A stretch of DNA of 64,000 nt from the NCBI GenBank assembly GCA_050942615.1, contig JBMNNQ010000002.1, positions 19,722-83,721 of the forward strand, written 5' to 3'. How positions within the stretch are numbered: position 1 is the stretch's first letter; every line of letters begins with the position of its first letter. The stretch comes from Dethiobacteria bacterium (GTDB lineage: Bacteria > Bacillota > Dethiobacteria > DTU022 > UBA8154). This document shows positions 12,431 to 63,195 of this stretch, piece by piece. The notes beneath the pieces are model-generated. The model saw only the letters and a program-made list of their open reading frames with translations, was not told the origin of the DNA and made no database searches. The position numbers and the translations under genes are program-made.

Positions 12431-13507
12431 ATGATGTCAAGAAAAAATTTATTTTTCGTCTTGTTCTGCATGCTGTGTTGTTTAACAGCGTTAACGCCCG
12501 GTTGTGGCCAAAGTGAATCTCAAATAGGGCCGGGGGTTAAGCCCGTTGTGATTGTTGATTCGGCGGGCAGGAGCGTGGAACTGCCCCAGCCTTTGGAAAA
12601 GGTAGTTATTCTTAACACCGATGTGGCTGAAGCTATGCGTATTTTAAAGGTTCATCACAACGTTTTAGGTGTTAGCGATACCATTCAAAAGGATCCTTAT
12701 CTTGGTTTGCAGGACAGGGATTTTATAGGGAAATGGAACACCCCCAACTATGAAAAAATCGTTGAATTAAAGCCACAGGTTGTTGTCTCTTATAGTGGAA
12801 CACCCGGTCTGGAATTAGCAGAAAAATTAGAGCCAGCCGGGATAAAGGTGGTTTTTTTAGATTTATTTAAACCTGAAACATATAATGATGATCTTAAAAC
12901 TTTGGGTAAAATGTTTGGGAAAGAAGAAGAAGCAAATTCATTTATCAAGTGGAAAGATGAAAAAATAGTGATGTTGGAACGGTTAAATGATTTAAAAACA
13001 GAACAAAAACCAAAGGTTTTTGGGATGTGGGCCAGTAACTTTCAAAAAGAACAGTGGAAGACCTTTGCTACAGGCACTTCCGTACACCAGGGTATCGAAA
13101 TGGCGGGTGGAATTAATATAGCACGTAAAATGGAAAATTACCCTGAAGTTAGCCCGGAATGGATCTTGCAGCAAGACCCGCATGTAGTTATTATGGCCCT
13201 GGCCGAAAAAAACGACTTAGGCTATAAGGCGACAAATCTATCCAGCGCTGAAGGACTACAAGAAGACATTGTTAACCATAAGGTTTTTAACAAAACAACG
13301 GCTGCCAGAGAAAAACGGGTATATTTTGTTAGCACCAGCATGCTGGGCGGTGATAAAACATATCTGGGGGCGCTGTACCTGGCCAAATGGTTCTACCCGG
13401 ACCGGTTTATGGATGTGGAGCCCGATCAGGTTTTGCAAGAATACTTTGAAACGTGGTTGGACGTACCTTTTCAGGGTAAATGGGCCTTTCCCCCGGTATT
13501 AGATTAG
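12431..13507 (+). CDS. Periplasmic-binding-protein lipoprotein (PBP paralog 3)
   Basis: RBS AGGAAAGGA precedes ATG 12431. Lipobox LTPGCGQ. Motifs LPQPLEKVVI, ELKPQVVV and LAKWFYPDRFMDVEPDQVLQEYFETWLDVPFQGKWAFP. Confidence 0.8.
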   Translation: MMSRKNLFFVLFCMLCCLTALTPGCGQSESQIGPGVKPVVIVDSAGRSVELPQPLEKVVILNTDVAEAMRILKVHHNVLGVSDTIQKDPYLGLQDRDFIGKWNTPNYEKIVELKPQVVVSYSGTPGLELAEKLEPAGIKVVFLDLFKPETYNDDLKTLGKMFGKEEEANSFIKWKDEKIVMLERLNDLKTEQKPKVFGMWASNFQKEQWKTFATGTSVHQGIEMAGGINIARKMENYPEVSPEWILQQDPHVVIMALAEKNDLGYKATNLSSAEGLQEDIVNHKVFNKTTAAREKRVYFVSTSMLGGDKTYLGALYLAKWFYPDRFMDVEPDQVLQEYFETWLDVPFQGKWAFPPVLD

Positions 13508-13649
13508 GATGGCATCCCTTTTGGGCACACTGGATCAAAATCAGGAAATATTTAAAAAAATATAATTTTAAAAACCCCCTTGCGCATTCTTGTGATATGT
13601 TGTAAAATAGGCCATAACAAATGAATATAAAAAAGCTTTGAAGGAGAAA

Positions 13650-13948
13650 AGTAGATTGGGGTACTTCCTGCAGAAAGGCGGGGGCCAAAGGCTGTGAGCC
13701 CCCCCGGAAGGAGCCAGTTGAAGTTCACTCCGGAGCTTCCGTTTGAAATCCCTGCAGGGAGAGTAGGGCGCTGACGGGTTCTCACCCGTTATCCCAGAGG
13801 AGGAATAAGACCTCCATGTCTGCTGTAATTAACGGCAGGTCAGGAATTTGTTCCTTAATGCCAAGAGGGCCGTGTGCCGATAGGCACCGGTCAAATAGGG
13901 TGGTACCGCGGAAGATAATTCGCCCCTTAAGGGGGCGATTTTTATTTT
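13650..13948 (+). promoter_or_regulatory. T-box leader (tRNA-sensing riboswitch) with antiterminator/terminator
   Basis: Canonical T-box sequence AATAGGGTGGTACCGCGG at 13894-13911. It builds the antiterminator GGG-[UGGUACC bulge]-GCG..CGC-CCC. The competing terminator is CGCCCC-UUAA-GGGGGCG plus a U-run (13921-13948). Upstream: an F-box CCGUUA (13786-13791), a GNUGA box GCUGA (13770-13774), GAGAGUA (13759-13765) and a stem III hairpin GUGCC/GGCAC (13873-13888). The 5' boundary and the specifier codon cannot be fixed by eye. Confidence 0.75.
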
Positions 13949-14117
13949 CAGGATTTAAGGCCTGGTGTTTGCTGCTTTCGTCCCTAATGAAAAATGCAGT
14001 AAACACTTTTTTATTTTTTAAAACAGCAACAGACATACGCCCGGAAAAGATATTAAAAAAACCTGTCCGGCGCTTACAGGAACAAAGTTTCAAATTAATA
14101 GGGAGGGGCATCTAAAA

Positions 14118-15701
14118 ATGAATTTTGGCCGTTACGGTATTCTCAATGCCAAGAGGTACCCGCATAAAGAATTTCTTGTAGAGCAGAAGCCGTCTGAAAG
14201 GGAAAGAAGGTCGCTGACCTGGAAGGAATTCAACACCGCAACAAATAAAGTTGCCAATTACCTGCGGGATCACTTAGGGGTGCAAAAGGGTGACTTTGTA
14301 CTTCACCTGCAGATGAACAGCTTGGAATGGGTGATCACCTTTCATGCTATTTTAAGAATCGGGGCGGTGGCGGTCCCCCTTAACTTCCGTTTTGCTGCCA
14401 ATGATATTCAACATGCTGCTGCAGCATGCAATCCCAAGGCTTTTATTTTAGGCGAGGGCTTTTTACCCAAGGTGGAACCCATCAAAAACACACTGGAAAG
14501 TATCAGCGCATACATTTGTATCGGCGAGTGTGTTCCCGCCGGGATGGTTTCTTACCATGATATTATCAAAACCGGTAACCCTAAGGATGTGCTGGTTGAT
14601 GTGCAAAAAGATGATCCGGCGGAACTGATGTTTACCTCTGGGACGACAGGCCCCCCCAAGCCGGTTTGCCATTCGCATGACACCCTTTACCAAATAGGTG
14701 TCGGGAATGCCCTGACTTATAGCGAAGGGCAGGACACAGTTTATTTAGCGCCCCACCCTTTTTACCACAGCGGCAGTTTCTTTTTGTCCTTTCCTTCTTA
14801 TCTTGCGGGCGGCAAGATTGTTATGTTGCTGGAATTGAATGATCCGAGCTACTTATTGGCAACAATTTGCGATGAAAAGGTTAATAACGGCTGGGTGGCT
14901 GTTCCTATCATGTCTGATTCCATAAACGCCGTTAAAAAAGGCTTGATTGATCTCTCCCGGTACGACTTTTCACATGTTACCGGCAGCATTGTAATCGGTG
15001 CGCAGCCGGTTCCCTTTTCACTCTTTCAGGATATGAAAAGGCTTTTACCCTTTAAAACAGGTAATATTTATGGTATTACAGAAGGCGGCGGCGGCGGGCT
15101 GATCAACCTTTGTGATGAGGATATTTTAACAAAACCCGGCTCCATCGGTAAGCCCACCTTTAATACCGAGGCGCGGATTGTTGATGAAAACGGAAAGGAT
15201 GTACCTGTCGGGGAGGTTGGGGAGTTAATTTTGTACGGTTCAAGAAATATGAAGGAATATTTTAGAAACCCCGCTATGACTGCGTCTGCCTTACAGGACG
15301 GTTGGCTTTATACCGGGGATCTGGCCAGGAAAGATGAAGATGGTTATTTCTATATTGTGGATCGGAAAAAGGATCTGATTATTCGCGGCGGTGAAAACAT
15401 CTTTCCCGTGGAAATCGAAGACTGCCTGCGGCATCATGCCAAAATTAGGGATGTGGCGGTGATCGGTTATCCCCATCCCCGGCTGGTAGAAATAGCGATG
15501 GCCATCGTGCAGCTGCATCCGGGGGAAACAATGGAGGAAAAAGAGGTAGTTGAATTTTGTGCCCGGCATGGCTTGGCTAAATTTAAATGGCCCGAACGCG
15601 TTGTGTTTGATATTGTGTTGCGCAATGATACCGGTAAAATTAATAAACCCAAACTGCGGGAAAAATACCTAAGCCATGAAAAAGTTGCTGCCGTTAAATA
15701 A
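14118..15701 (+). CDS. AMP-dependent synthetase/ligase (acyl-CoA ligase, FadD/MenE-like)
   Basis: ANL-superfamily motifs FTSGTTGPPKPV, GITEGGGGG, YTGDLARKDEDGYFYIVDRKKDLIIRGGENIFPVEIE. RBS AGGGAGGGG lies upstream of ATG 14118. Confidence 0.8.
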   Translation: MNFGRYGILNAKRYPHKEFLVEQKPSERERRSLTWKEFNTATNKVANYLRDHLGVQKGDFVLHLQMNSLEWVITFHAILRIGAVAVPLNFRFAANDIQHAAAACNPKAFILGEGFLPKVEPIKNTLESISAYICIGECVPAGMVSYHDIIKTGNPKDVLVDVQKDDPAELMFTSGTTGPPKPVCHSHDTLYQIGVGNALTYSEGQDTVYLAPHPFYHSGSFFLSFPSYLAGGKIVMLLELNDPSYLLATICDEKVNNGWVAVPIMSDSINAVKKGLIDLSRYDFSHVTGSIVIGAQPVPFSLFQDMKRLLPFKTGNIYGITEGGGGGLINLCDEDILTKPGSIGKPTFNTEARIVDENGKDVPVGEVGELILYGSRNMKEYFRNPAMTASALQDGWLYTGDLARKDEDGYFYIVDRKKDLIIRGGENIFPVEIEDCLRHHAKIRDVAVIGYPHPRLVEIAMAIVQLHPGETMEEKEVVEFCARHGLAKFKWPERVVFDIVLRNDTGKINKPKLREKYLSHEKVAAVK

Positions 15702-15740
15702 TCCCCGGACAGGGCTGTTCTTTTTGCTTACAGCCTGTGT

Positions 15741-16454
15741 TTGTTCTATAATGTAATTATGGTTCAGGGGGGGGTGGAGAAAGCAGTTTTCAAACGCTGC
15801 ATGGCTGTTATGGACGAATTATTTCTTAAAAAGCAAACGTGTTTGTTGTGTGCTGCAAAATTTAAAAGCAGCAGGGTTAAAAGAAGTAAACAGCACCTGT
15901 TAAAAAGGGATTCCGACTTTTGTGTACACTATAAGGGTAAAAACCCCGATTTTTATAACGTTTTTGTCTGCCCGCAGTGCGGTTACGGTTTTTCTGAAAA
16001 CTTTAAAATTCCTGCAGTGGAGAAAATAAAGATAATTAAAACAGAGATTAAACCCCCGGCAGATGATTTATGCGGTTTGCGTACGGTGGAGCAGGCTATT
16101 CAGGCCTACCAGACTGCATTAAAGTGTGCTCTGCTGGGGGAAGAAAGGGAAACCATTATCGCAGGCATATATCTTCACCTGGCCTGGTTTAACAGGTTTA
16201 TAAAAAATGAAGACGCCGAAGTTGAAAATTTAGAAAAAGCAATGCACTATTATGAAAAAGCAATCACCACAGACCGGAAATTGGAAAACCCGGCCACTGT
16301 TTTTTATTTAATTGGTGAAATAAGCAGTAGAACCGGTGATGATAAAAGGGCAGTGAAATTTTTTGCCCGTATCGTTAATGATAAAAAAATAAAAAACCCC
16401 AATATTATCAGAATGGCCCGGGAAAGGTGGCAGGAAATTCGTGCTGCCCGGTGA
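15741..16454 (+). CDS. Zinc-ribbon/TPR-like protein of unknown function (DUF2225-like)
   Basis: Contains CxxC...CPQCGYGFSENF zinc-ribbon spacing followed by a helical repeat region. No strong RBS; alternative ATG at 15759. Confidence 0.5.
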   Translation: MFYNVIMVQGGVEKAVFKRCMAVMDELFLKKQTCLLCAAKFKSSRVKRSKQHLLKRDSDFCVHYKGKNPDFYNVFVCPQCGYGFSENFKIPAVEKIKIIKTEIKPPADDLCGLRTVEQAIQAYQTALKCALLGEERETIIAGIYLHLAWFNRFIKNEDAEVENLEKAMHYYEKAITTDRKLENPATVFYLIGEISSRTGDDKRAVKFFARIVNDKKIKNPNIIRMARERWQEIRAAR

Positions 16455-16645: not shown

Positions 16646-18433
16646 TTATTTATCAATTTCCAACTTATAATTTCTAACTTTTTTAATGACGGCTGTATGT
16701 GAAATGCCCAGGTGTCTGGAGGCTTTCCGAAATGAACCGTATTTTCTGATTGCGTTTTCCAAAATGATTTTTTCCAGTTCTTCGCGGGCTTTCTTGAGAT
16801 TCATGTTTGCATAATTGAAATTAAACGCAGTGTTTACCCCGGTGTCATGGCTTTCGGACGGTTCAACCTCACCCGTAACTGCATTGCTTTTAGCTGCTTC
16901 AACCTCAGCAATTATATTGCCGGGCAGGTCTGATTTTTGCAGCGTATCCCCGTCACAAACGATCACCATTCTTTCCACCACATTTTTTAATTCCCTGACG
17001 TTTCCCGGCCAACTGTACCTTGTTAGCAGGTTGACTGTTACCGGGGAAAAGGTTTTTTGCAGCCGGTATTTTTTGTTATATTTACCCAAATAGAACGACA
17101 GTAATAGCGGGATGTCCCCCGTTCTTGCCCTTAATGGGGGGACTACAACCGGCAAAACATGCAGGCGGTAAAACAAATCTGCCCGGAATTCCCCCTTTTT
17201 GGTTTTATTTTTCAGATCATGGTTGGTGGCGGCAATGATGCGTGTATCGATACCGACAGGATTTACACCGCCTAACCGCAACACTTTTGTGTCCTCCAGA
17301 ATACGCAACAGCTTTGCCTGCATAGCAAGGGGTAGATCCCCAATTTCATCTAGAAACAGCGTGCCCTGGTCAGCTATTTCAAATGCTCCCGGTTTGCCCT
17401 GTTTATTTGCCCCTGTAAACGCCCCGGCTTCATAGCCGAAAAGTTCAGATTCCAACAATTGTTCCGGGATGGCACTGCAGTTAATTTTTATTAATTTTCC
17501 CTGTCTTAAACTCCATTTATGAATTTTTTCTACAATTATTTCTTTTCCTACCCCGGATTCGCCTAAAATAAGAATATTGGATTGGGTGGCGGCCACCTTT
17601 TTAACAAGCTCTAAAAGCTCCAGCATTGCGGTGTCACCGGTTAGAAACAGTTTTTCTTTTTTTAACTTTTTGCCCCCTGAACTGCCTCCGGTAACATTGG
17701 TTTTAAAGAGGTTGGGCAACCAAAAGGCGTCTTTCAGTTCCAGCTGCACTTTAATGAAAGCGGTAATATCCTTGACAGTGCTGGCCACCGTCAAGACCTC
17801 GCCATTTTTATTGATTACCGGCACGGCGTTGATGGCCAGCTCTTTCCCTGTACAAATTTTTTGAAAGTCGGTCACAATTTGTTTTTTATTTAGGGAAGTA
17901 AGGGCAATGGAGTTGCATTTGATGAGACCCTGTTTAAAAAGGGTGTCCATGTCTTTTTTTAAAAAGTCCCCGGCGGTCAGTCCCGTATCGCGCAGCAGTG
18001 AGCTGTTAACCTTGCAGACTGTTCCCTCCTTGTCCAGGAATAATATCCCGTGGTTGATAGCATCTACAACAGCATCAACCCCCACCTCTTTTTTGATGGT
18101 TTTGGCAATTTCAGTAGTTATTCTTTCAATAGCTGTGATTTCTTTAAATATGGAAAGGGCCCCCAATACCTTCCCGTCTTCACAAACGGGTATTCTATTT
18201 ACAAGAAATATTTTGTTGTTGAAAATAAACTTTTCCAGCAGTTGAGGCTGTCCTGTCTGTAAAACCCTTGTTAAGCCGTTATCGTTAAAAACATTTTTCC
18301 ATGACTTACCGCTTAAATTTTGTTTTATTTCCAACAAAGTCAAGAAGGTTTTATTGCAGAAAACAATTTTTTGCCGTTTATCAACGGCAAGAATACCGTA
18401 CTTAAATAAATCTAATAACTGTCTAAATGGCAA
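16646..18433 (-). CDS. Sigma-54-dependent transcriptional activator with tandem PAS sensor domains (no receiver domain)
   Basis: Central AAA+ sigma-54 interaction domain (GESGVGKE, ESELFGYEAGAFTGA, GNVRELKN) and a C-terminal Fis-type HTH (RHLGISHTAVIKKVR). The N-terminal ~250 aa contain two PAS-like modules. Confidence 0.85.
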   Translation of the reverse strand: MPFRQLLDLFKYGILAVDKRQKIVFCNKTFLTLLEIKQNLSGKSWKNVFNDNGLTRVLQTGQPQLLEKFIFNNKIFLVNRIPVCEDGKVLGALSIFKEITAIERITTEIAKTIKKEVGVDAVVDAINHGILFLDKEGTVCKVNSSLLRDTGLTAGDFLKKDMDTLFKQGLIKCNSIALTSLNKKQIVTDFQKICTGKELAINAVPVINKNGEVLTVASTVKDITAFIKVQLELKDAFWLPNLFKTNVTGGSSGGKKLKKEKLFLTGDTAMLELLELVKKVAATQSNILILGESGVGKEIIVEKIHKWSLRQGKLIKINCSAIPEQLLESELFGYEAGAFTGANKQGKPGAFEIADQGTLFLDEIGDLPLAMQAKLLRILEDTKVLRLGGVNPVGIDTRIIAATNHDLKNKTKKGEFRADLFYRLHVLPVVVPPLRARTGDIPLLLSFYLGKYNKKYRLQKTFSPVTVNLLTRYSWPGNVRELKNVVERMVIVCDGDTLQKSDLPGNIIAEVEAAKSNAVTGEVEPSESHDTGVNTAFNFNYANMNLKKAREELEKIILENAIRKYGSFRKASRHLGISHTAVIKKVRNYKLEIDK

Positions 18434-18840: not shown

Positions 18841-18856
18841 TGGCATAAAAGTTGCA
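18841..18856 (+). promoter_or_regulatory. Sigma-54 (-24/-12) promoter for the downstream ligase gene
   Basis: TGGCATaaaagTTGCA matches TGGCAC-N5-TTGCW at 15 of 16 positions with exact GG..GC spacing. It lies about 50 nt upstream of ATG 18908 and divergent from the sigma-54 activator gene. Confidence 0.6.
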
Positions 18857-18907
18857 TTAAGAATAATTAGAACATAAAAAATATTGGAAATAAGGGGAGG
18901 TTTAAAA

Positions 18908-20530
18908 ATGTTAAAGTTGAAAACAGTCACAAGTTATGAGGATGTGCAGGACTGTACAGTGGGGGAAGTGCTGGAACGGGGAGCCCTGTTATGTCCGGAT
19001 AAAGAAGCACTCGTGTTTGGCGCGAAAAGAATAAATTATTACGACCTGAACGTTCTGGTAGACAGCTTTGCGGCAGCGATTTCTGAACTGGGTTTTAAAA
19101 AAGGTGACAGGATTGCGATTGACCTTCCCAATTCACCGGAACTGGTTATTTCTTTTTTTGCCGCTGCAAAGTTGGGATTAATCGCAACTTGGCTAAATCC
19201 TTTGTATAGGGAAGCAGAGCTAAAGTTTATATTGGGAAATTCCAAGTCAAAAGGGATTATTTTGAAGTCGGGATTTCAGGAACATGATTATGCAGGTTCG
19301 GTTTTAAAAATGAAAAATGATCTTCCTGCATTACAATTTATTATTGATGTATCTGCAAGGCAGGATACCATAATGTTTGATGATTTGTTGAAAAAAGGTG
19401 CTCCCAAAAAGTATGTTAAGCCGGAAATTGATCCCCGGGAGGATTATGTGATGCTTATTTATACCTCCGGTTCCACGGGTATACCCAAGGGGGCTCCGCA
19501 TACACATTGGCAGGTAATTCGCCAGGGTTTTAACTACCAGCAATCCTTGGCTACAACTGCCGATGATATTTTTATTTCTTTTTTACCTCTATACCACCTT
19601 TTCGGCTTTGGCGCTTTGTTCATGAGTGTTTTATCCACGCAGGGAACGCTGGTCTTAATGGAAACGTATGACCGGGAGGAGGCTTTCCGTTTAATTGAAA
19701 GAGAAAAATGCACTGTTCACCACGCCGCGCCAACCCATTATATATTAAAGCTAAAGGATGACCTTTATAAAAATTATGATCTTTCTTCGCTACGGATCGG
19801 CTACACTTCCGGTTATGTGCCCCCGATGGAGCTGATGGTGGAAATAGAAGAAAAATTAGGCGTTGAGGTTTCTAACTTCTGGGGTTCTTCGGAGGCAGGG
19901 GGGGCACTGATTTTTGATCATAGTGACCCCTCCCGGGAAAAACGTTTTAAAACAGTAGGCAAACCAATTGAAATCATGGATATTAAAATAGTGGACCCTG
20001 AAACCCGGGCAGAAAAAGCGGTGGGCGAAGAAGGGGAACTAATGTGCCGTGGTCCGAACGTAATCAAGGGTTATTGGGAAAATCAGGCCGAAACAGAGGC
20101 GCATTTTGATGCCGACGGTTGGTTTGCTACCGGTGACCTAGCGTTTATTGATGAGGGCGGTTATGTAACCATTACCGGCAGAACTAAAGATCAAATAAAC
20201 CGGGGTGGGCTGAAGGTAACACCTTTTGAGCTGGAAAAAGAAATCAGCAAACACCCCAACGTGCATGAAGTTGCGATTGTGGCTACCCCCAACCCGGTAT
20301 TGGGAGAAAATATATGTGCCTGCGTTGTCCCGGCGCCAGGAAAGTCAGTTACCCTGGCGGAGATCCGTGACTTTTTAGATGGTAAGATAGCCAAAAATAA
20401 ATTGCCCGACGAGTTAAGCGTTTTTGACAGTTTCCCCCGGCTTGTCGGTGGGGTAAAGCTGAATAAGTTTGGCGCAGGAGGTATTAAAGAACTGGCCATT
20501 AATGATCAAAACAAGCAAAGTGTAAGGTAA
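18908..20530 (+). CDS. AMP-dependent synthetase/ligase (acyl-CoA ligase)
   Basis: Motifs YTSGSTGIPKGA, GSSEAGG, GDLAFIDEGGYVTITGRTKDQINRGGLKV. RBS AAGGGGAGG precedes ATG 18908; the longer ORF from 18884 lacks an RBS. Confidence 0.8.
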   Translation: MLKLKTVTSYEDVQDCTVGEVLERGALLCPDKEALVFGAKRINYYDLNVLVDSFAAAISELGFKKGDRIAIDLPNSPELVISFFAAAKLGLIATWLNPLYREAELKFILGNSKSKGIILKSGFQEHDYAGSVLKMKNDLPALQFIIDVSARQDTIMFDDLLKKGAPKKYVKPEIDPREDYVMLIYTSGSTGIPKGAPHTHWQVIRQGFNYQQSLATTADDIFISFLPLYHLFGFGALFMSVLSTQGTLVLMETYDREEAFRLIEREKCTVHHAAPTHYILKLKDDLYKNYDLSSLRIGYTSGYVPPMELMVEIEEKLGVEVSNFWGSSEAGGALIFDHSDPSREKRFKTVGKPIEIMDIKIVDPETRAEKAVGEEGELMCRGPNVIKGYWENQAETEAHFDADGWFATGDLAFIDEGGYVTITGRTKDQINRGGLKVTPFELEKEISKHPNVHEVAIVATPNPVLGENICACVVPAPGKSVTLAEIRDFLDGKIAKNKLPDELSVFDSFPRLVGGVKLNKFGAGGIKELAINDQNKQSVR

Positions 20531-25346: not shown

Positions 25347-26168
25347 TTAGGATCCCCCCGCGGCAGCCTGTTTTGATTTTTCCAGGGAATAGTTGACTGT
25401 TACTTCCTCATCGGGGAAAGGAACTATGACCGGGATGCCCATAATTTCTACAATGTGCACATGCATTTCGTAGACTGCCTCTATGTTTTCAGGGGTCATG
25501 ACCTCCAACCCGCCATAGGAATAGACGAAAGAGTCCTTGAGGAATAAGAAACGGTCACAGTAGCGGATGGCTAGGTTGAGGTCGTGAATAACGATCGCCA
25601 CAGAGATATTGTGTTCCCGGGCAATTAACTTTACGGTGCGCAGCACTTCATGCTGGTTGCGTGGGTCAAGGTTGCTGGTGGGTTCGTCAAGCAGTAACAG
25701 CTTTGGTTCCTGGGCCAGCGCCCGGGCAAGCATCACCTTTTGTATTTCCCCGCCGGAAAGCTTGGCTACATTGCGCAGGGCAAAGTCTTCCAGCTGCATT
25801 TTTTGGATGATCTCGCGCACAATTTGCCGGTCTTCTGCCGTGGCATCCCATTTAATATACGGTTTGCGGCCTAAAAGGATGGCATCAAAAACGGTCATGT
25901 GCAATGACTTATTATCTTGTGCGACATAAGAAATGTTTTGGGCCATCACGTTTCTGGACATATTATACACGTTTTGCCCGTCAACCAGGACGACACCTTT
26001 CTGGGCGGGGCAGATGCGGTTGATACATTTAATCAACGTGCTTTTGCCCGCCCCATTGTTGCCCAGGATGGCAATGCATTGGCTTTTTTGGATATCAAAG
26101 CTGACATCCTCCAGTACATTGCTTGTACCCTGGTTATAGGTGAAAGTAAGTTCATCAATTTTAACCAT
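25347..26168 (-). CDS. ABC importer ATP-binding protein (FecE-like)
   Basis: GNNGAGKST, LSGGEIQKV, LLLLDEPTSNLD, IHDLN. Start taken at MVKIDELTF (ATG 26168), overlapping the permease stop. Confidence 0.85.
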   Translation of the reverse strand: MVKIDELTFTYNQGTSNVLEDVSFDIQKSQCIAILGNNGAGKSTLIKCINRICPAQKGVVLVDGQNVYNMSRNVMAQNISYVAQDNKSLHMTVFDAILLGRKPYIKWDATAEDRQIVREIIQKMQLEDFALRNVAKLSGGEIQKVMLARALAQEPKLLLLDEPTSNLDPRNQHEVLRTVKLIAREHNISVAIVIHDLNLAIRYCDRFLFLKDSFVYSYGGLEVMTPENIEAVYEMHVHIVEIMGIPVIVPFPDEEVTVNYSLEKSKQAAAGGS

Positions 26169-27240
26169 TACCCTGCAACCCCCTGAATAGTAGGTAAAGA
26201 AACATTGGTGCACCCAAAAAAGAAGTGATGGCCCCGATGGGCAGTATAACCGGTGCAATAGCCAACCGGGCGAAGGTATCGGCCAGGATGAGCAGCAGCG
26301 CCCCGGCTGATGCCGAACACGGAATTAGATAGCGGTAATCGTTGCCGATAAAACGGCGCATGATGTGAGGGGCTATCAACCCCACAAAACTGATAATGCC
26401 CACAAAGGATACGGCTACTGCTGCAGTCAGGGAACAGATGCCCATACTGATGATCATCACCGTTCTGGTGTTTACGCCCAGGCTTTTTGCTGTGTCCGCG
26501 CCGCTCTGCATGGCATTATAGTTCCAGCGGTTCAGTAGGAAATAGAGCAATGACAGCAAAAAGATCAAAGCTAAAATCAAAAGTTCTTTCCAACCCGCCG
26601 ATCCCAAGTTGCCAAAAGTCCAGAACACGACAGAGCTGATTTTTGTTTCGTCTGCAAAGTATTGCAGCAGAGCGCTGCTGCCGGCGAATAAAGAACTTAA
26701 GGCCACGCCGGCCAGGATAAGGCCGGCAGGCCCCAAATCCTTTTTGAACTGGGAGAGCACAATCACCACAACTGTGGAAAGGGAACCGCAGATAAAGGCA
26801 CACAAAGTTACAATATAAGGGTTGTTAATGGCCACTGCAGTGGCGGCAGAGGAAGATTGGACAACTCCGCCGCCAAAGACAATAATGCCCAGCGCCGCCC
26901 CGAAGGCAGCGCCCTGGGAGACGCCGAGCGTTGAAGCCGATGCCAGCGGGTTTTGCAATACGCACTGCATAACAGCACCCGAAACGGCTAAGGCGGCGCC
27001 CACCAGGATGGCTGCTGTCACCCGTGGCAGCCTGATGTTCATGATCACCGTCTGTGACTGTAGTTCTCCCCGGCCCATAATCGTTTTGGCTATTTCAGCA
27101 AGGGGGATCTTCAGGGAACCGGAACTGACTGCAAAAAGTGCAATGACAATAGTGACCAGCACAGAGATCATAAAGATCTGTTTCTTACGTTTAATAAAGT
27201 CCTGGTATAGTTCCAGTTGTGGGACATGGTTGTTTGCCAT
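26161..27240 (-). CDS. FecCD-family ABC importer permease
   Basis: RLPRVTAAILVGAALAVSGAVMQ...NPLASASTLGVSQGAAFGAALG motifs. Confidence 0.85.
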   Translation of the reverse strand: MANNHVPQLELYQDFIKRKKQIFMISVLVTIVIALFAVSSGSLKIPLAEIAKTIMGRGELQSQTVIMNIRLPRVTAAILVGAALAVSGAVMQCVLQNPLASASTLGVSQGAAFGAALGIIVFGGGVVQSSSAATAVAINNPYIVTLCAFICGSLSTVVVIVLSQFKKDLGPAGLILAGVALSSLFAGSSALLQYFADETKISSVVFWTFGNLGSAGWKELLILALIFLLSLLYFLLNRWNYNAMQSGADTAKSLGVNTRTVMIISMGICSLTAAVAVSFVGIISFVGLIAPHIMRRFIGNDYRYLIPCSASAGALLLILADTFARLAIAPVILPIGAITSFLGAPMFLYLLFRGLQGNG

Positions 27241-28370
27241 TAATTTTCACCGATGGTTACAGCACTGTAGCTTGCGCCAAAATTTTCAAGTTTGCTAAGA
27301 TAATCATCATCGCCAAGGAAAAATGCAAAGATTCCATTGGCCTTGTCTGCAAAAACTATATCCTTGAACTGCTCCGGGAAAATTATGCTTCCAATATAAT
27401 AACTGTTTACCAGGGGAATTTCAACGTTTGAATAGTAGGATGTGGCATTGGGATACTGATAGAGTTTTCCGTTTTGAAACGCCTGCAGGTGAGCGTAAAA
27501 ATCCGGGTTTTTCTTAAGATCTTCCTCAACAAGTGCCAAACCTGTATAGTCGAAAAAAATATATTCGGGGTTCCAGCCGATGATCTGCTCCTTGTCAACC
27601 AGCACACCATCAATTAAATCAGTAGAATCTTTGGTAACATCATTGGCATGCAGTATTTTGAAGATCTCATAGTTGGCATAAACGCCCTCGATGCCGTGGG
27701 AGCCTTTGAAGGTTGCCGCCGCCCCCAATACAGTGGGTTTATCCTCGTCGGGCACGTCTGCCGTTCTTGTTCTAAGATCCTGCAGGCAGTCGTTGATGAA
27801 GGTAATGACCTCTTCAGCCTTTTCTGGAACACCACAAACATCAGCCAGCAGGCGCAGGGCCTGTTCGTAATCCTCCCCAAACAGGGTTCCCAAGGGTACG
27901 GAAACCACCGGGATGCCGGTTTTGGTTTGAATTTCATCCGCCAAGTCCGGGGCATAGGAGCATAAAATCACATCGGGGTTAACTCTAATGATTTCTTCAG
28001 GGTAATAATCGGTTGCTCCGGCTGCATCAGTGCCAACAACGGGCAGATCTGCCCACAGGTCTTTGTTGGCATAGGCATAGGCTGTTACGGGGGTGATATT
28101 TTCAGCATCCATCCCGCCGATGCCCACAGCTTTGCCAGCCAGTCCTAAATACGTAATCATACGCGGTGTATTGGCCAGAGGAACAAAACTTTCCACTTTT
28201 GCGGGTATTTCCACCTCACGCCCAACCAAATCGGTTATTGTGCGGGTGGTTGCTTCCGCAGCCCCCCCGGGGTCGGTACCTGAAGGTTCACCAGAGGGGC
28301 TATCCCCACAGCCGGCAACCAGGCTAGAAGTGAGAACAACGACTAAAATGAACAAAGCAATTTTTTTCAT
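27240..28370 (-). CDS. Periplasmic-binding-protein lipoprotein (iron-chelate/heme/corrinoid-binding type)
   Basis: Lipobox LVAGCG. A class III PBP-like sequence at the head of a three-gene importer operon on the minus strand. Confidence 0.75.
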   Translation of the reverse strand: MKKIALFILVVVLTSSLVAGCGDSPSGEPSGTDPGGAAEATTRTITDLVGREVEIPAKVESFVPLANTPRMITYLGLAGKAVGIGGMDAENITPVTAYAYANKDLWADLPVVGTDAAGATDYYPEEIIRVNPDVILCSYAPDLADEIQTKTGIPVVSVPLGTLFGEDYEQALRLLADVCGVPEKAEEVITFINDCLQDLRTRTADVPDEDKPTVLGAAATFKGSHGIEGVYANYEIFKILHANDVTKDSTDLIDGVLVDKEQIIGWNPEYIFFDYTGLALVEEDLKKNPDFYAHLQAFQNGKLYQYPNATSYYSNVEIPLVNSYYIGSIIFPEQFKDIVFADKANGIFAFFLGDDDYLSKLENFGASYSAVTIGEN

Positions 28371-61244: not shown

Positions 61245-62537
61245 ATGCGTATTCTGATGTTAAGCTGGGAGTTTCCCCCTTTAAATGTGGGCGGTCTGGC
61301 CCAGCATGTTTTTGAACTGTCCCGGTCCCTGGTAAAAACAGATTGCCAGGTGACAGTCCTCACCTCCCAAGGTGACGATCTGCCCCCCTATGAAAATATG
61401 GAGGGGATAGATGTGTGGCGGGTTAATCCCTACCACGGGGGTCAGGAAAGGGATTTTATCGACTGGACACAACGCCTGAATTTTGCTTTGCTGGCAAAGG
61501 GGGCGGCGCTTTCCAACCAACAGGGAAAATTTGATTTAGTGCACGCCCATGACTGGTTGGTTGCCTATGCCGGCAGCGGGTTGAAACAAATCTATACCAC
61601 GCCCTTGCTGGCTACCATCCATGCAACCGAATTTGGCCGCAATAACGGCCTGCATAACCCGGAACAGCGCAGTATCGGCGCTCTGGAATGGTGGCTGACT
61701 TATGAAGCCTGGAAGGTAATCTGCTGCAGCAGGCACATGGAAGAAGAACTGCAGCATGTTTTTCAGCTTCCCGCCGACAAAATTGAAATGATACCCAACG
61801 GGATTAGGCCGGAAGCCTATACAGTTACAACCGGGGGCCCAACCTTGGAAAGCATGGGCCTGCAGCACGAAGATCAGATCATCTTTTACGTCGGACGTCT
61901 TGTCAGGGAAAAGGGCGTCCAGGTTGTCCTGGAAGCTTTACCTGAGATCCTGGGCCGTTTTCCCCGGGCAAAATTTGTAGTTGCGGGCACAGGCCCCCAC
62001 GCAGAACAACTAAAAAGCCGCACACGTGAACTGGGGCTGGAGGGAAAGGTGCATTTCCCGGGTTATATCAGCGATGCCATGCGCAATGAACTTTACAATG
62101 CGGCTGCTGTGGCAGTGTTCCCCAGTCTTTATGAACCCTTTGGCATAGTGGCTCTGGAGGCCATGGTTACCAACACGCCTGTTTTGGTTTCAGCGGTGGG
62201 CGGGTTAGATGAAATTGTTGAACATGAAATAGATGGTTTAAAGGCTTACCCCGGCGATTCGCACTCCGTGGCGGAACAAATTTGCCGTTTACTGGCAGAC
62301 CGGGAATGGGCCGAAGACTTGGCCGTCCGGGCTTATGCCAAAGCGCAGCGCACTTACTCGTGGGATAAAATTGCCCGGCGGACCGCTGAAATATATAAGG
62401 AGATCATCCTTTCGCCGGAAAACAAGCGCTGGCGGGAACAAACAGCCGAAGGCTCCCCGGAGGGGTTGGCGATGGGAACCAGAACTGCGACGGGGACTGG
62501 CACCGCAAAAAAGCAGGAAACGCCCTCCCGGAGATGA
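61245..62537 (+). CDS. Glycosyltransferase family 4 (GT-B fold) with Thr/Gly-rich C-terminal tail
   Basis: MRILMLSWEFPPLNVGGLAQHV N-terminal GT4 motif. EPFGIVALEAM in the C-terminal domain. Confidence 0.7.
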   Translation: MRILMLSWEFPPLNVGGLAQHVFELSRSLVKTDCQVTVLTSQGDDLPPYENMEGIDVWRVNPYHGGQERDFIDWTQRLNFALLAKGAALSNQQGKFDLVHAHDWLVAYAGSGLKQIYTTPLLATIHATEFGRNNGLHNPEQRSIGALEWWLTYEAWKVICCSRHMEEELQHVFQLPADKIEMIPNGIRPEAYTVTTGGPTLESMGLQHEDQIIFYVGRLVREKGVQVVLEALPEILGRFPRAKFVVAGTGPHAEQLKSRTRELGLEGKVHFPGYISDAMRNELYNAAAVAVFPSLYEPFGIVALEAMVTNTPVLVSAVGGLDEIVEHEIDGLKAYPGDSHSVAEQICRLLADREWAEDLAVRAYAKAQRTYSWDKIARRTAEIYKEIILSPENKRWREQTAEGSPEGLAMGTRTATGTGTAKKQETPSRR

Positions 62538-62615
62538 TGCGGCAGGGGGCAAGATCTTAAAGCAGCGCCCTGTAAGAACTTTTAATACGCACGGAGGGCG
62601 GTGTTGGTTGACTTT

Positions 62616-62643
62616 GCCGGGGGGGCCGCCCCCGGCTTTTTTT
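62616..62643 (+). terminator. Rho-independent terminator
   Basis: GCCGGGGGGG/CCGCCCCCGGC stem followed by TTTTTTT. Confidence 0.6.
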
Positions 62644-62949
62644 AACAGCATAGGAACAGCCTTCAGGACGTCAGGCTGTATAGTAACTACCTTTGAAAAT
62701 TGTATGATATCCTTGCTGAAGGATACTAATGTTAACGTCTTCCGGAAGAGAAATCTGGGCCCGCACCGGGGTTCTATTACTATTTCAGGAAGTATATACT
62801 GACCAAACGATTTTTCCGGTTGCCGGCAGGTATTGTCACCCTGTTTTTTAAAAAAGGGTGGCAAAATTTTTAGGCTTATGGTAGTATAATATTGCACTCT
62901 AAAGACAGGGTTGCTGGTTCTTTGCAGCATGTTAAAAAGTGAATATGGT

Positions 62950-63195
62950 AACAGGTGCCTTGCAGGGCTTAAAGGGGAAACCGGTGTAAATCCGGTGCGG
63001 TCCCGCCACTGTAAACGGGTAGCCTTTCTTAACAAGCCACTGGTACTGATGTTCAAACCGGGAAGGCGAAGGAAGGCGATGATCTGTCAGCCAGGAGACC
63101 TGCCTGTAACCAAACACACAATCCCCTTCGAGGTTAAAGGGGGAGGTGTCGTGTGCTTACCACGCGGATCTTCCCCGTGGTATTTTTATTTGTAC
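62950..63195 (+). promoter_or_regulatory. Cobalamin (AdoCbl) riboswitch with terminator-type expression platform
   Basis: AGGTGCC..TAAAGGGGAAACCGGTGTAAATCCGGTGCGGTCCCGCCACTGTAA (62957-63014). B12 box GCCACTG (63046-63052). GGAAGGCG. CAGCCAGGAGACCTGCC (63088-63104). Then hairpin CCACGCGG/CCCCGUGG plus a U-run (about 63160-63195). A TATAAT sits at 62885. Confidence 0.85.

Follow-up and report, generated by a model that had tools for sequence, protein, structure and literature searches.

A stretch of 64,000 nucleotides (nt) of contig JBMNNQ010000002.1 from a Dethiobacteria bacterium (assembly GCA_050942615.1), referred to below as the window, harbours at positions 13580-14117 an RNA leader of the T-box riboswitch family, which is followed directly by a gene for an acid:CoA ligase. 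The leader is very probably a functional T-box responding to tRNA-Phe. As to the purpose of this control, the reading to which we incline, with moderate confidence, is that phenylalanine starvation induces a phenylacetate-CoA ligase which feeds indolepyruvate oxidoreductase (IOR) and thereby the formation of phenylalanine. The leader and its gene consist of the following parts:

13580-13608, forward strand: probable sigma-70 promoter of the leader, read from the sequence (-35 box TTGCGC at 13580-13585, 17-nt spacer, -10 box TAAAAT at 13603-13608)
13635-13736, forward strand: Stem I, from the covariance-model alignment, with GA/K-turn base, specifier loop (AGUA opposite GAAGUUCA), AG bulge and distal loop
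13724-13726, forward strand: specifier codon UUC (Phe), from the same alignment, with the conserved purine A next to it at 13727
13897-13927, forward strand: T-box sequence and antiterminator 1, from the same alignment (AGGG[UGGUACC]GCGGA, loop AGAUAA, then UUCGC-CCCU)
13920-13948, forward strand: terminator 1, from a terminator scan (UCGCCCC UUAA GGGGGCGA and a U-run)
13948-13965, forward strand: small hairpin 1b (CAGG...CCUG), flagged by the terminator scan
13965-14019, forward strand: hairpin 2, a second terminator-like element (stem GUGUUUGCUGC at 13965-13975 with GCAGUAAACAC at 13996-14006, U-run at 14007-14019)
14100-14108, forward strand: ribosome-binding site AGGGAGGGG for the ligase, seen in the sequence 9 nt before the start codon ATG (14118)
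14118-15701, forward strand: gene for an ANL-superfamily acyl/aryl-CoA ligase of 527 aa with PF00501 and PF13193 ('family A', partner of iorB)

The covariance model RF00230 of Rfam matched the forward strand at 13629-13930 with 105.4 bits (gathering score 93, E = 3e-22). The alignment spans model positions 1-219 without truncation, so that the curated gathering score is exceeded over the full model, and the match was recovered again in a permissive local search. Related leaders (n = 14, each from a different locus) scored between 94.8 and 121.2 bits, and the leader type of the window was found in 25 other loci from genomes and metagenomes, a recurrence which is far beyond chance. The promoter pattern TTGC(A/G)N - 17 nt - TA(A/T)AAT is kept in all 11 aligned loci; in the window it was left unflagged by a simple promoter scan because its -35 box matches at 3 of 6 positions only.

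Analysis of 14 leaders with RNAalifold yielded 30 base pairs in Stem I, of which 8 have changed on both strands; among these are pairs of the helix just below the specifier loop, where the changes are compensatory (GGAG/CUCC, AGAG/CUCU, AAAG/CUUU, UGAG/CUCG). This pattern points to structural selection on Stem I and hence argues that the leader is not a relic. The T-box sequence AATAGGGTGGTACCGCGG is located at 13895-13912, with the UGGU bulge at 13901-13904, and forms part of the antiterminator AGGG[UGGUACC]GCGGA...UUCGCCCCU (13897-13927), whose 7-nt bulge carries the UGGN motif and whose 5' strand is invariant in 16 distinct leaders. Terminator 1 consists of the hairpin TCGCCCCTTAAGGGGGCGA (13920-13938) followed by TTTTTATTTT; its 5' strand and the antiterminator's 3' strand share nucleotides, making the two structures competitors, with computed energies of -7.6 kcal/mol for antiterminator 1 versus -14.8 kcal/mol for terminator 1. 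The basal pair of terminator 1 covaries (UA in 8 leaders, CG in 6). Hairpin 1b shows covariation across loci by eye (CAGGAU/AUCCUG versus AGGCUU/AAGCC), with 67.9 % of cells paired in a column-wise count in which indels disturb the alignment. On this comparative evidence the leader can be regarded as an intact, canonical transcriptional T-box. An earlier, sequence-only reading of the window had described a T-box leader with a UGGU-bulge antiterminator and a competing terminator, and had proposed its comparison with RF00230 and the folding of Stem I; the full-length match lies where that reading placed the leader, the terminator hairpin with its U-run shares a strand with the antiterminator, and Stem I is intact together with its specifier loop.

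The specifier codon, which the same reading had left to be extracted, was obtained from the covariance-model alignment. On its 3' side the specifier loop has the 8-nt bulge GAAGUUCA (13720-13727, GAAG-UUC-A), followed by the helix strand CUCC. In T-box leaders the codon lies 2-4 nt from the 3' end of this bulge, with a purine next to it (PMC7778990), and application of this rule to the bulge gives UUC. The codon is UUC in 26 of 26 related leaders; the base that follows is G in 14, A in 10 and C in 2, i.e. a purine in 24 of 26. Stem I thus presents, in its specifier loop, a codon and a purine as expected of a T-box. The UGGU bulge, in turn, suits a discriminator base A, the one present in bacterial tRNA-Phe.

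The product of the downstream gene matched PF00501 (1.2e-71) and PF13193 (2.8e-09), the N- and C-domains of AMP-binding enzymes. Its translation holds VDRKKDLIIRGGENI, and the core motifs TSGTTGPPK and DRKKDLIIRGGENI are readable, so that both domains and the core motifs of an ANL-superfamily acyl/aryl-CoA ligase are present. Of the named NCBIfam ligase equivalogs (MenE, FadD types, cyclohexanecarboxylate-CoA ligase and others), none reached its cutoff among 25 listed models, the best being PRK06187 with 382.8 versus 476. The closest solved structures are those of FadD13 (3r44), feruloyl-CoA synthetase (8wev) and anthranilate-CoA ligase (4wv3), along with FadD5 and 4-coumarate-CoA ligases. Families and solved structures gave relatives among acyl/aryl-CoA ligases, luciferase and aryl-AMP ligases only, and no homology to aminoacyl-tRNA synthetases or other amino-acid-activating enzymes. 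By these similarities the window gene encodes an acid:CoA ligase and not an amino-acid-activating enzyme. This agrees with the sequence-only reading, which had seen here an ANL acid:CoA ligase instead of an aminoacyl-tRNA synthetase, a classical biosynthesis gene or a transporter, and which would have had to be abandoned for an amino-acid-activating enzyme of a known T-box regulon.

A genome scan with the ligase yielded 23 loci, mostly from Dethiobacteria or other Bacillota metagenome-assembled genomes (MAGs). A comparison of orthologous ligase genes, as suggested earlier, did reveal conserved T-box leaders: an above-threshold T-box lies directly upstream of the ligase gene in six of the loci (L001-L004, L010, L017). 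In L006, L007, L008 and L018 it lies ~2.5 kb upstream, with iorA and iorB in between, and the same leader precedes an iorA-iorB-ligase operon in these four loci and in L024; at the window locus itself the ligase gene is not part of such an IorAB-linked operon. A metagenome scan for the core of hairpin 2 returned 80 stretches, of which 13 were real and the others chance 16-mers. The 13 further true leaders precede a ligase gene (9), iorA (1), or a membrane open reading frame (ORF) and a symporter gene (1, L082), the remaining 2 being cut by contig ends. In L082 (9364-11544, reverse strand) the leader, comprising a Phe T-box and hairpin 2, is followed by a 37-aa membrane ORF and a sodium:solute symporter gene (PF00474). 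The symporter is a candidate transporter for phenylacetate or phenylalanine; all of its NCBIfam matches are far below cutoff and no relative was found in the PDB.

The oxidoreductase encoded in the sister operons is of the aromatic-specific type. Its IorA subunit scores above the TIGR03336 equivalog cutoff (680.5 and 685.6 versus 650.9), IorB is at or above the cutoffs of indolepyruvate oxidoreductase beta models, and the scores of VOR-type models are far below cutoff. Orthologues of the family-A ligase (70-85 % identity) are encoded directly after iorA-iorB in L006-L008, L018, L011, L016, L106, L109 and L110. According to tblastn and gene context, the clusters of L011, L016/L109, L106 and L110 have this arrangement without a T-box, and in L013 and L014 the family-A gene lies two genes upstream of iorAB. 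No T-box was detected before distant orthologues or paralogue clusters, even at E <= 0.01. In the sister loci the T-box-controlled unit consists of iorAB and the family-A ligase gene only. The paralogous clusters additionally hold genes for a GntR/FCD regulator, a 2-hydroxyacid dehydrogenase, two HGD-D (2-hydroxyacyl-CoA dehydratase) subunits and beta-oxidation-type enzymes (thiolase, ECH, 3HCDH), as well as a ligase of another family, B (~32 % identical to family A), encoded between the dehydrogenase gene and iorA.

Such clusters recur in L106-L110 in the order GntR/FCD, 2-hydroxyacid dehydrogenase, ligase B, iorA, iorB, (ligase A), two HGD-D genes and beta-oxidation genes, with several copies per genome. 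Their gene content suggests an anaerobic pathway, so far uncharacterised, for aryl-pyruvate, aryl-lactate or aryl-acetate in which two different CoA ligases take part. The Dethiobacter alkaliphilus MAG with the T-box operon (L008) also has two of these paralogous clusters. On one contig of 230 kb, a solitary T-box-ligase (L104) coexists with an iorAB-ligase cluster that lacks a T-box (L106). According to a distance tree, the family-A ligases that have a T-box make up one clade, in which the ligase-only group (window, L003, L010) stands next to the iorAB group; such a topology is consistent with the leader having been acquired once and with iorAB having later been lost or relocated in the lineage of the window. 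A group II intron domain (RF00029, 45.2 bits) was noticed a few kb downstream of the T-box-ligase in L003 (10089-10165, reverse strand) and L104 (8904-8980, reverse strand).

In the mechanism proposed here, 13580-14117 would be a working transcription-attenuating leader specific for tRNA-Phe. Transcription would start at the conserved promoter and Stem I would offer UUC to the anticodon of tRNA-Phe. The free NCCA end of uncharged tRNA-Phe would pair with the UGGU bulge and stabilise the antiterminator; terminator 1 would then fail to form, and RNA polymerase would continue into the ligase gene. In the case of charged tRNA, transcription would end at 13939-13948. These steps follow, by analogy, from membership in the T-box family; what is said of the substrate, of the flux direction and of the function of hairpin 2 is inference. 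The ligase would form the CoA thioester of an aryl-acetic acid, phenylacetate being the likeliest, IOR would reductively carboxylate phenylacetyl-CoA to phenylpyruvate, and transamination would give phenylalanine, so that phenylalanine starvation would induce salvage from phenylacetate. Since a T-box switches genes on when its amino acid is scarce, a supply function is expected, i.e. synthesis and not breakdown, and as the unit consists of IOR and a ligase only, under a Phe specifier, the conversion of phenylacetate to phenylalanine makes a coherent pathway. The ancestral unit would have been leader-iorA-iorB-ligase; in the lineage of the window the leader now stands directly before the ligase gene and iorAB would be supplied by paralogous clusters elsewhere in the genome. 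It was reported that aryl acids feed aromatic amino-acid synthesis via IOR in Methanococcus maripaludis (PMC4162585, citing Porat et al.) and that rumen cultures form phenylalanine from phenylacetate (PMC7356843). The sequence-only reading had suggested an amino-acid-derived acid as the substrate, for example a branched-chain or aromatic one; of these, the aromatic option agrees with the Phe specifier as well as with the linkage to iorAB, and the branched-chain option is disfavoured by the codon UUC.

Downstream of terminator 1 every leader carries hairpin 2 (26 of 26 leaders, 16 distinct sequences), which in the leaders and in the metagenome scan was never seen without a T-box and which the sequence-only reading had overlooked. 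Its stem of 11 pairs has 97.4 % of cells paired, as compared with 36-49 % in slid controls, includes 4 pairs with changes on both sides by the column-wise pairing count and has an energy of -19.3 kcal/mol. The loop begins with CUUUCGUCCC (13975-13984), which is the same in all leaders, and continues with a part that varies in sequence and length (6-13 nt). In the leader of L046, a tandem TATGAA duplication extends this variable part to 13 nt and leaves CUUUCGUCCC unchanged. In the iorA-first loci ~20 nt separate the U-run of hairpin 2 from the ribosome-binding site, which places hairpin 2 inside the transcript and implies that transcripts must cross it; in the ligase-first loci a poorly conserved spacer of 96-157 nt lies between hairpin 2 and the start codon.

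The loop of hairpin 2 repeats the 3' strand of the T-box antiterminator, its segment CGUCCCU being identical to the Rfam consensus of that strand. This loop can pair with AGGG[UGGUACC]GCGGAAG over 4+7 bp with -13.1 kcal/mol, as against -9.1 for the real 3' strand, or alternatively with the 3' half of terminator 1 with -14.2 kcal/mol. Compared with shuffled loops, the pairing with the T-box strand is modestly better than chance (z ~ -1 to -2.5), and the pairing with terminator 1 gave inconsistent values, being at chance in L082; since both pairing partners are invariant, covariation cannot decide the matter. A relay or second-checkpoint function of hairpin 2 is therefore offered as a weak lead. 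It is conceivable, albeit doubtful, that the leader is a two-checkpoint T-box of a kind not described before, in which a second terminator loop with an invariant copy of the antiterminator 3' strand (CUUUCGUCCCU) would relay or repeat the tRNA-charging decision and so tightly control a Phe-starvation regulon (iorAB, ligase, symporter) making phenylalanine from phenylacetate through reductive carboxylation. The loop would then pair, equally tentatively, with the T-box strand on either side of the tRNA-binding bulge, or with the 3' half of terminator 1 once this has been set free. Alternatively, hairpin 2 may be a constitutive attenuator, affect RNA stability or bind a protein.

Three further candidates were considered for the region between terminator 1 and the gene and were rejected or disfavoured. 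A second riboswitch was dismissed, as a permissive Rfam search of 13500-14200 gave the T-box only, besides a meaningless STnc490 match (20 bits versus a threshold of 56). A Phe-rich leader peptide starting from GTG at 13965 (MFAAFVPNEKCSKHFFIF) has no ribosome-binding site, and its frame is broken by a 4-nt indel that distinguishes the window and L001 from other loci. A DNA operator is less likely because the half-sites of hairpin 2 change in a base-pair-compensating way and the U-run is always kept.

The sequence-only reading had also suggested that a weak sigma-54-like element at 13958-13973 (AGGCCTggtgtTTGCT) could give a second, T-box-independent promoter co-controlled by the nearby PAS activator, an idea that has to be given up. 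Judged against TGGCAC-N5-TTGCW with conserved -24 GG and -12 GC, this string has three mismatches in the -24 box and is weaker than matches that occur at chance level, sites with <= 2 mismatches being found in the window at the chance rate (40 versus 41.5 expected). Its -12 GC is not conserved, as it reads TTTAC in most relatives, and the string spans the two conserved RNA hairpins 1b and 2, lying mostly within hairpin 2. A near-consensus site is present further downstream, with the following neighbours:

16646-18433, reverse strand: PAS/sigma-54 activator gene, divergent from the TGGCATAAAAGTTGCA site, with a best NCBIfam match that is PrdR-like and below cutoff
18841-18856, forward strand: near-consensus sigma-54 promoter TGGCATAAAAGTTGCA, intergenic between the activator gene and the second ligase gene
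18884-20530, forward strand: second ANL ligase gene, just downstream of TGGCATAAAAGTTGCA, its product 29 % identical to the T-box ligase

Most likely, the activator serves this second ligase gene and not the T-box ligase. The intergenic segment 18460-18650 contains repeated and inverted GGAAAC/GTTTCC motifs (TTTGGAAAC-like), which could be activator sites.

Several observations weigh against the salvage of phenylacetate, and some of them point to another use of the same switch. The substrate of the ligase is not fixed by its sequence, as the matches are generic ANL matches only, and the nearest solved structures belong to enzymes for fatty, feruloyl, anthraniloyl and coumaroyl substrates. The paralogous clusters, with their 2-hydroxyacid dehydrogenase, 2-hydroxyacyl-CoA dehydratase subunits, thiolase, ECH and 3HCDH, look catabolic or fermentative, so that the ancestral role of the family may have been the breakdown of aromatic acids. 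A gene for a PaaK-type ligase (PF14535) adjoins the L008 operon just downstream and could encode the phenylacetate enzyme, leaving another aryl acid to the ligase of the window type. Moreover, no match to IorA or IorB was found in the 64-kb window, and the pathway partner has to be assumed elsewhere in the genome. It is accordingly possible, though not probable, that the T-box works as described and the ligase acts on a different acid (phenyllactate, phenylpropionate, cinnamate, another aryl or a fatty acid) for a purpose other than rebuilding phenylalanine, e.g. the recycling of CoA esters or aromatic catabolism wired to Phe status. However, the T-box unit is limited to iorAB and the family-A ligase, and it is the distinct, unrelated ligase family B, never found under a T-box, that adjoins the dehydrogenase and dehydratase genes. 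Aryl-lactyl-CoA and arylpropionyl-CoA are not substrates of IOR, which would render the operon incoherent, and induction by uncharged tRNA speaks against a catabolic role.

Other doubts concern the switch itself. No tRNA genes were found within the window, and thus none on which the discriminator base could be checked there, and as the base after UUC varies (A/G/C), a specifier in the +1 frame, UCN (Ser), is possible from sequence alone, UCA, UCG and UCC all being Ser codons. The segment GAAGUUCR contains GUU as well as UCR, and the -1 frame GUU (Val) would fit the branched-chain acids suggested earlier. A specifier other than Phe is nevertheless very unlikely. The placement rule (PMC7778990) yields UUC followed by A or G in 24 of 26 leaders, and the partner enzyme in the sister operons is of the IOR and not the VOR type. 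Were the codon one for Ser, close relatives would have to use different isoacceptors and the codon would directly abut the helix. The discriminator base of bacterial tRNA-Ser is G, a poorer fit to UGGU. Hairpin 2 raises a separate objection, for it looks like a second terminator within the leader and, if constitutive, would damp induction. Its stability and U-run, together with the long, poorly conserved spacer of the ligase-first loci, could mean that the leader is insulated from the gene, with hairpin 2 as a constitutive terminator, the T-box as a relic or a source of a short RNA, and the ligase gene transcribed from a promoter of its own in 14020-14117 or possibly from the sigma-54-like element. 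We regard this as quite improbable, since the iorA-first loci keep hairpin 2 and leave no room for a promoter in the ~20 nt before the ribosome-binding site, and promoter, Stem I, specifier and antiterminator are all subject to purifying selection, with compensatory changes. In addition, the simple promoter scan of 13400-16000 flagged no sigma-70-like site, the sigma-54-like string lies upstream of the 3' strand of hairpin 2, with three mismatches in the -24 box and no conserved -12 GC, and the activator has a near-consensus target of its own at 18841-18856.

The only other Rfam match in the 64 kb is a cobalamin riboswitch:

62936-63121, forward strand: cobalamin riboswitch RF00174, 133.6 bits

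It overlaps mechanically called ORFs at 62289-63056 (reverse strand) and 62335-62802 (forward strand), and the gene under its control either extends past the end of the window or is located close to it. The segment 7135-13507 (forward strand) encodes a CobN cobaltochelatase, which exceeds the NF004646 cutoff, and after it, just upstream of the T-box, two Peripla_BP_2 binding proteins. A separate FecCD/ABC/Peripla_BP_2 transporter is encoded at 25347-28370 (reverse strand); these genes make up a neighbourhood for the uptake of corrinoids or metals that has no relation to the ligase. A gene for a DUF2225/TPR protein (15741-16454, forward strand) starts 40 nt past the ligase stop codon. A perfect TATAAT at 15747-15752 suggests that it has its own promoter, and the gene is kept downstream of the ligase in the closest relatives only (L001, L052), not in L104 and L105.

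The statement of the sequence-only reading that an acid:CoA ligase is not a described member of a T-box regulon is in line with the literature that was searched. Terms for IOR, ferredoxin or CoA ligase are absent from the text and supplements of the T-box survey of Wels 2008 and from the text of the regulon survey of Sun 2013, and no report linking a T-box to IOR, a CoA ligase or tandem terminators was found in the searchable full-text literature; an earlier listing in a database may exist. T-box specifiers are an accepted route to the function of unknown genes, and in this case a Phe T-box provides a testable function for an uncharacterised, widespread ligase family. The linkage would constitute regulatory evidence that a bacterial IOR can run biosynthetically; the conversion of phenylacetate to phenylalanine in anaerobes is an old biochemical idea with little genetic support from bacteria. 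If true, the T-box regulon would widen from aminoacyl-tRNA synthetases, de novo synthesis and transport to the salvage of aromatic acids, and a module of catabolic type would have been duplicated and, by re-wiring, put to anabolic use. A separate question on T-box architecture is posed by the second terminator hairpin, which is obligatory.

The leader shares with the transcriptional T-boxes of Bacillota (RF00230; B. subtilis tyrS and glyQS, Phe-specific pheS leaders) the K-turn base, the S-turn specifier loop, the codon with its purine, the distal tRNA-elbow motifs, the 7-nt UGGN bulge and the mutually exclusive antiterminator and terminator followed by a U-run. It differs from them in its cargo, an acid:CoA ligase (in sister loci iorAB or an SSF transporter) in place of an aminoacyl-tRNA synthetase, a classical biosynthetic operon or a known amino-acid transporter, and in that terminator 1 is always followed by two more hairpins, a small one and a terminator-like one whose loop is invariant. 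The cargo classes found here do not occur in the survey of Wels 2008. With tandem riboswitches and tandem T-boxes, in which several complete leaders stand in series, the leader has in common two successive terminator-like hairpins, and hence maybe two decision points; however, the second element here is ~55 nt long, lacks Stem I, specifier and T-box sequence, and has no Rfam match even at E <= 1, hence it is not a second T-box. With the PaaK-type phenylacetate-CoA ligases, the enzyme of the window has in common the ANL superfamily and the proposed reaction (phenylacetate + ATP + CoA). Unlike these proteins of ~430 aa with AMP-binding_C_2 (PF14535), such as the neighbour of the L008 operon, it has 527 aa and PF13193 and aligns best with FadD13 and with feruloyl-, anthranilate- and 4-coumarate-CoA ligases, therefore it does not belong to the PaaK family. 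The proposed pathway resembles that of M. maripaludis MMP0713/0714 and the rumen route, in which an aryl-acetic acid is converted via its CoA ester to the arylpyruvate by reductive IOR and then to the amino acid, and bona fide IorA and IorB are encoded in the sister operons. In contrast to these precedents, it would operate in Dethiobacteria-type Bacillota instead of archaea, with a FadD13/4CL-like ANL ligase that is the only component encoded in the window, and the evidence for it here is of a regulatory and genomic kind only. The riboswitch core is an ordinary member of a well-known family. What appears to be new are the genes it controls (an IOR-linked acid:CoA ligase and, behind the same leader in other loci, iorAB itself and a symporter) and the second hairpin, which is never missing.

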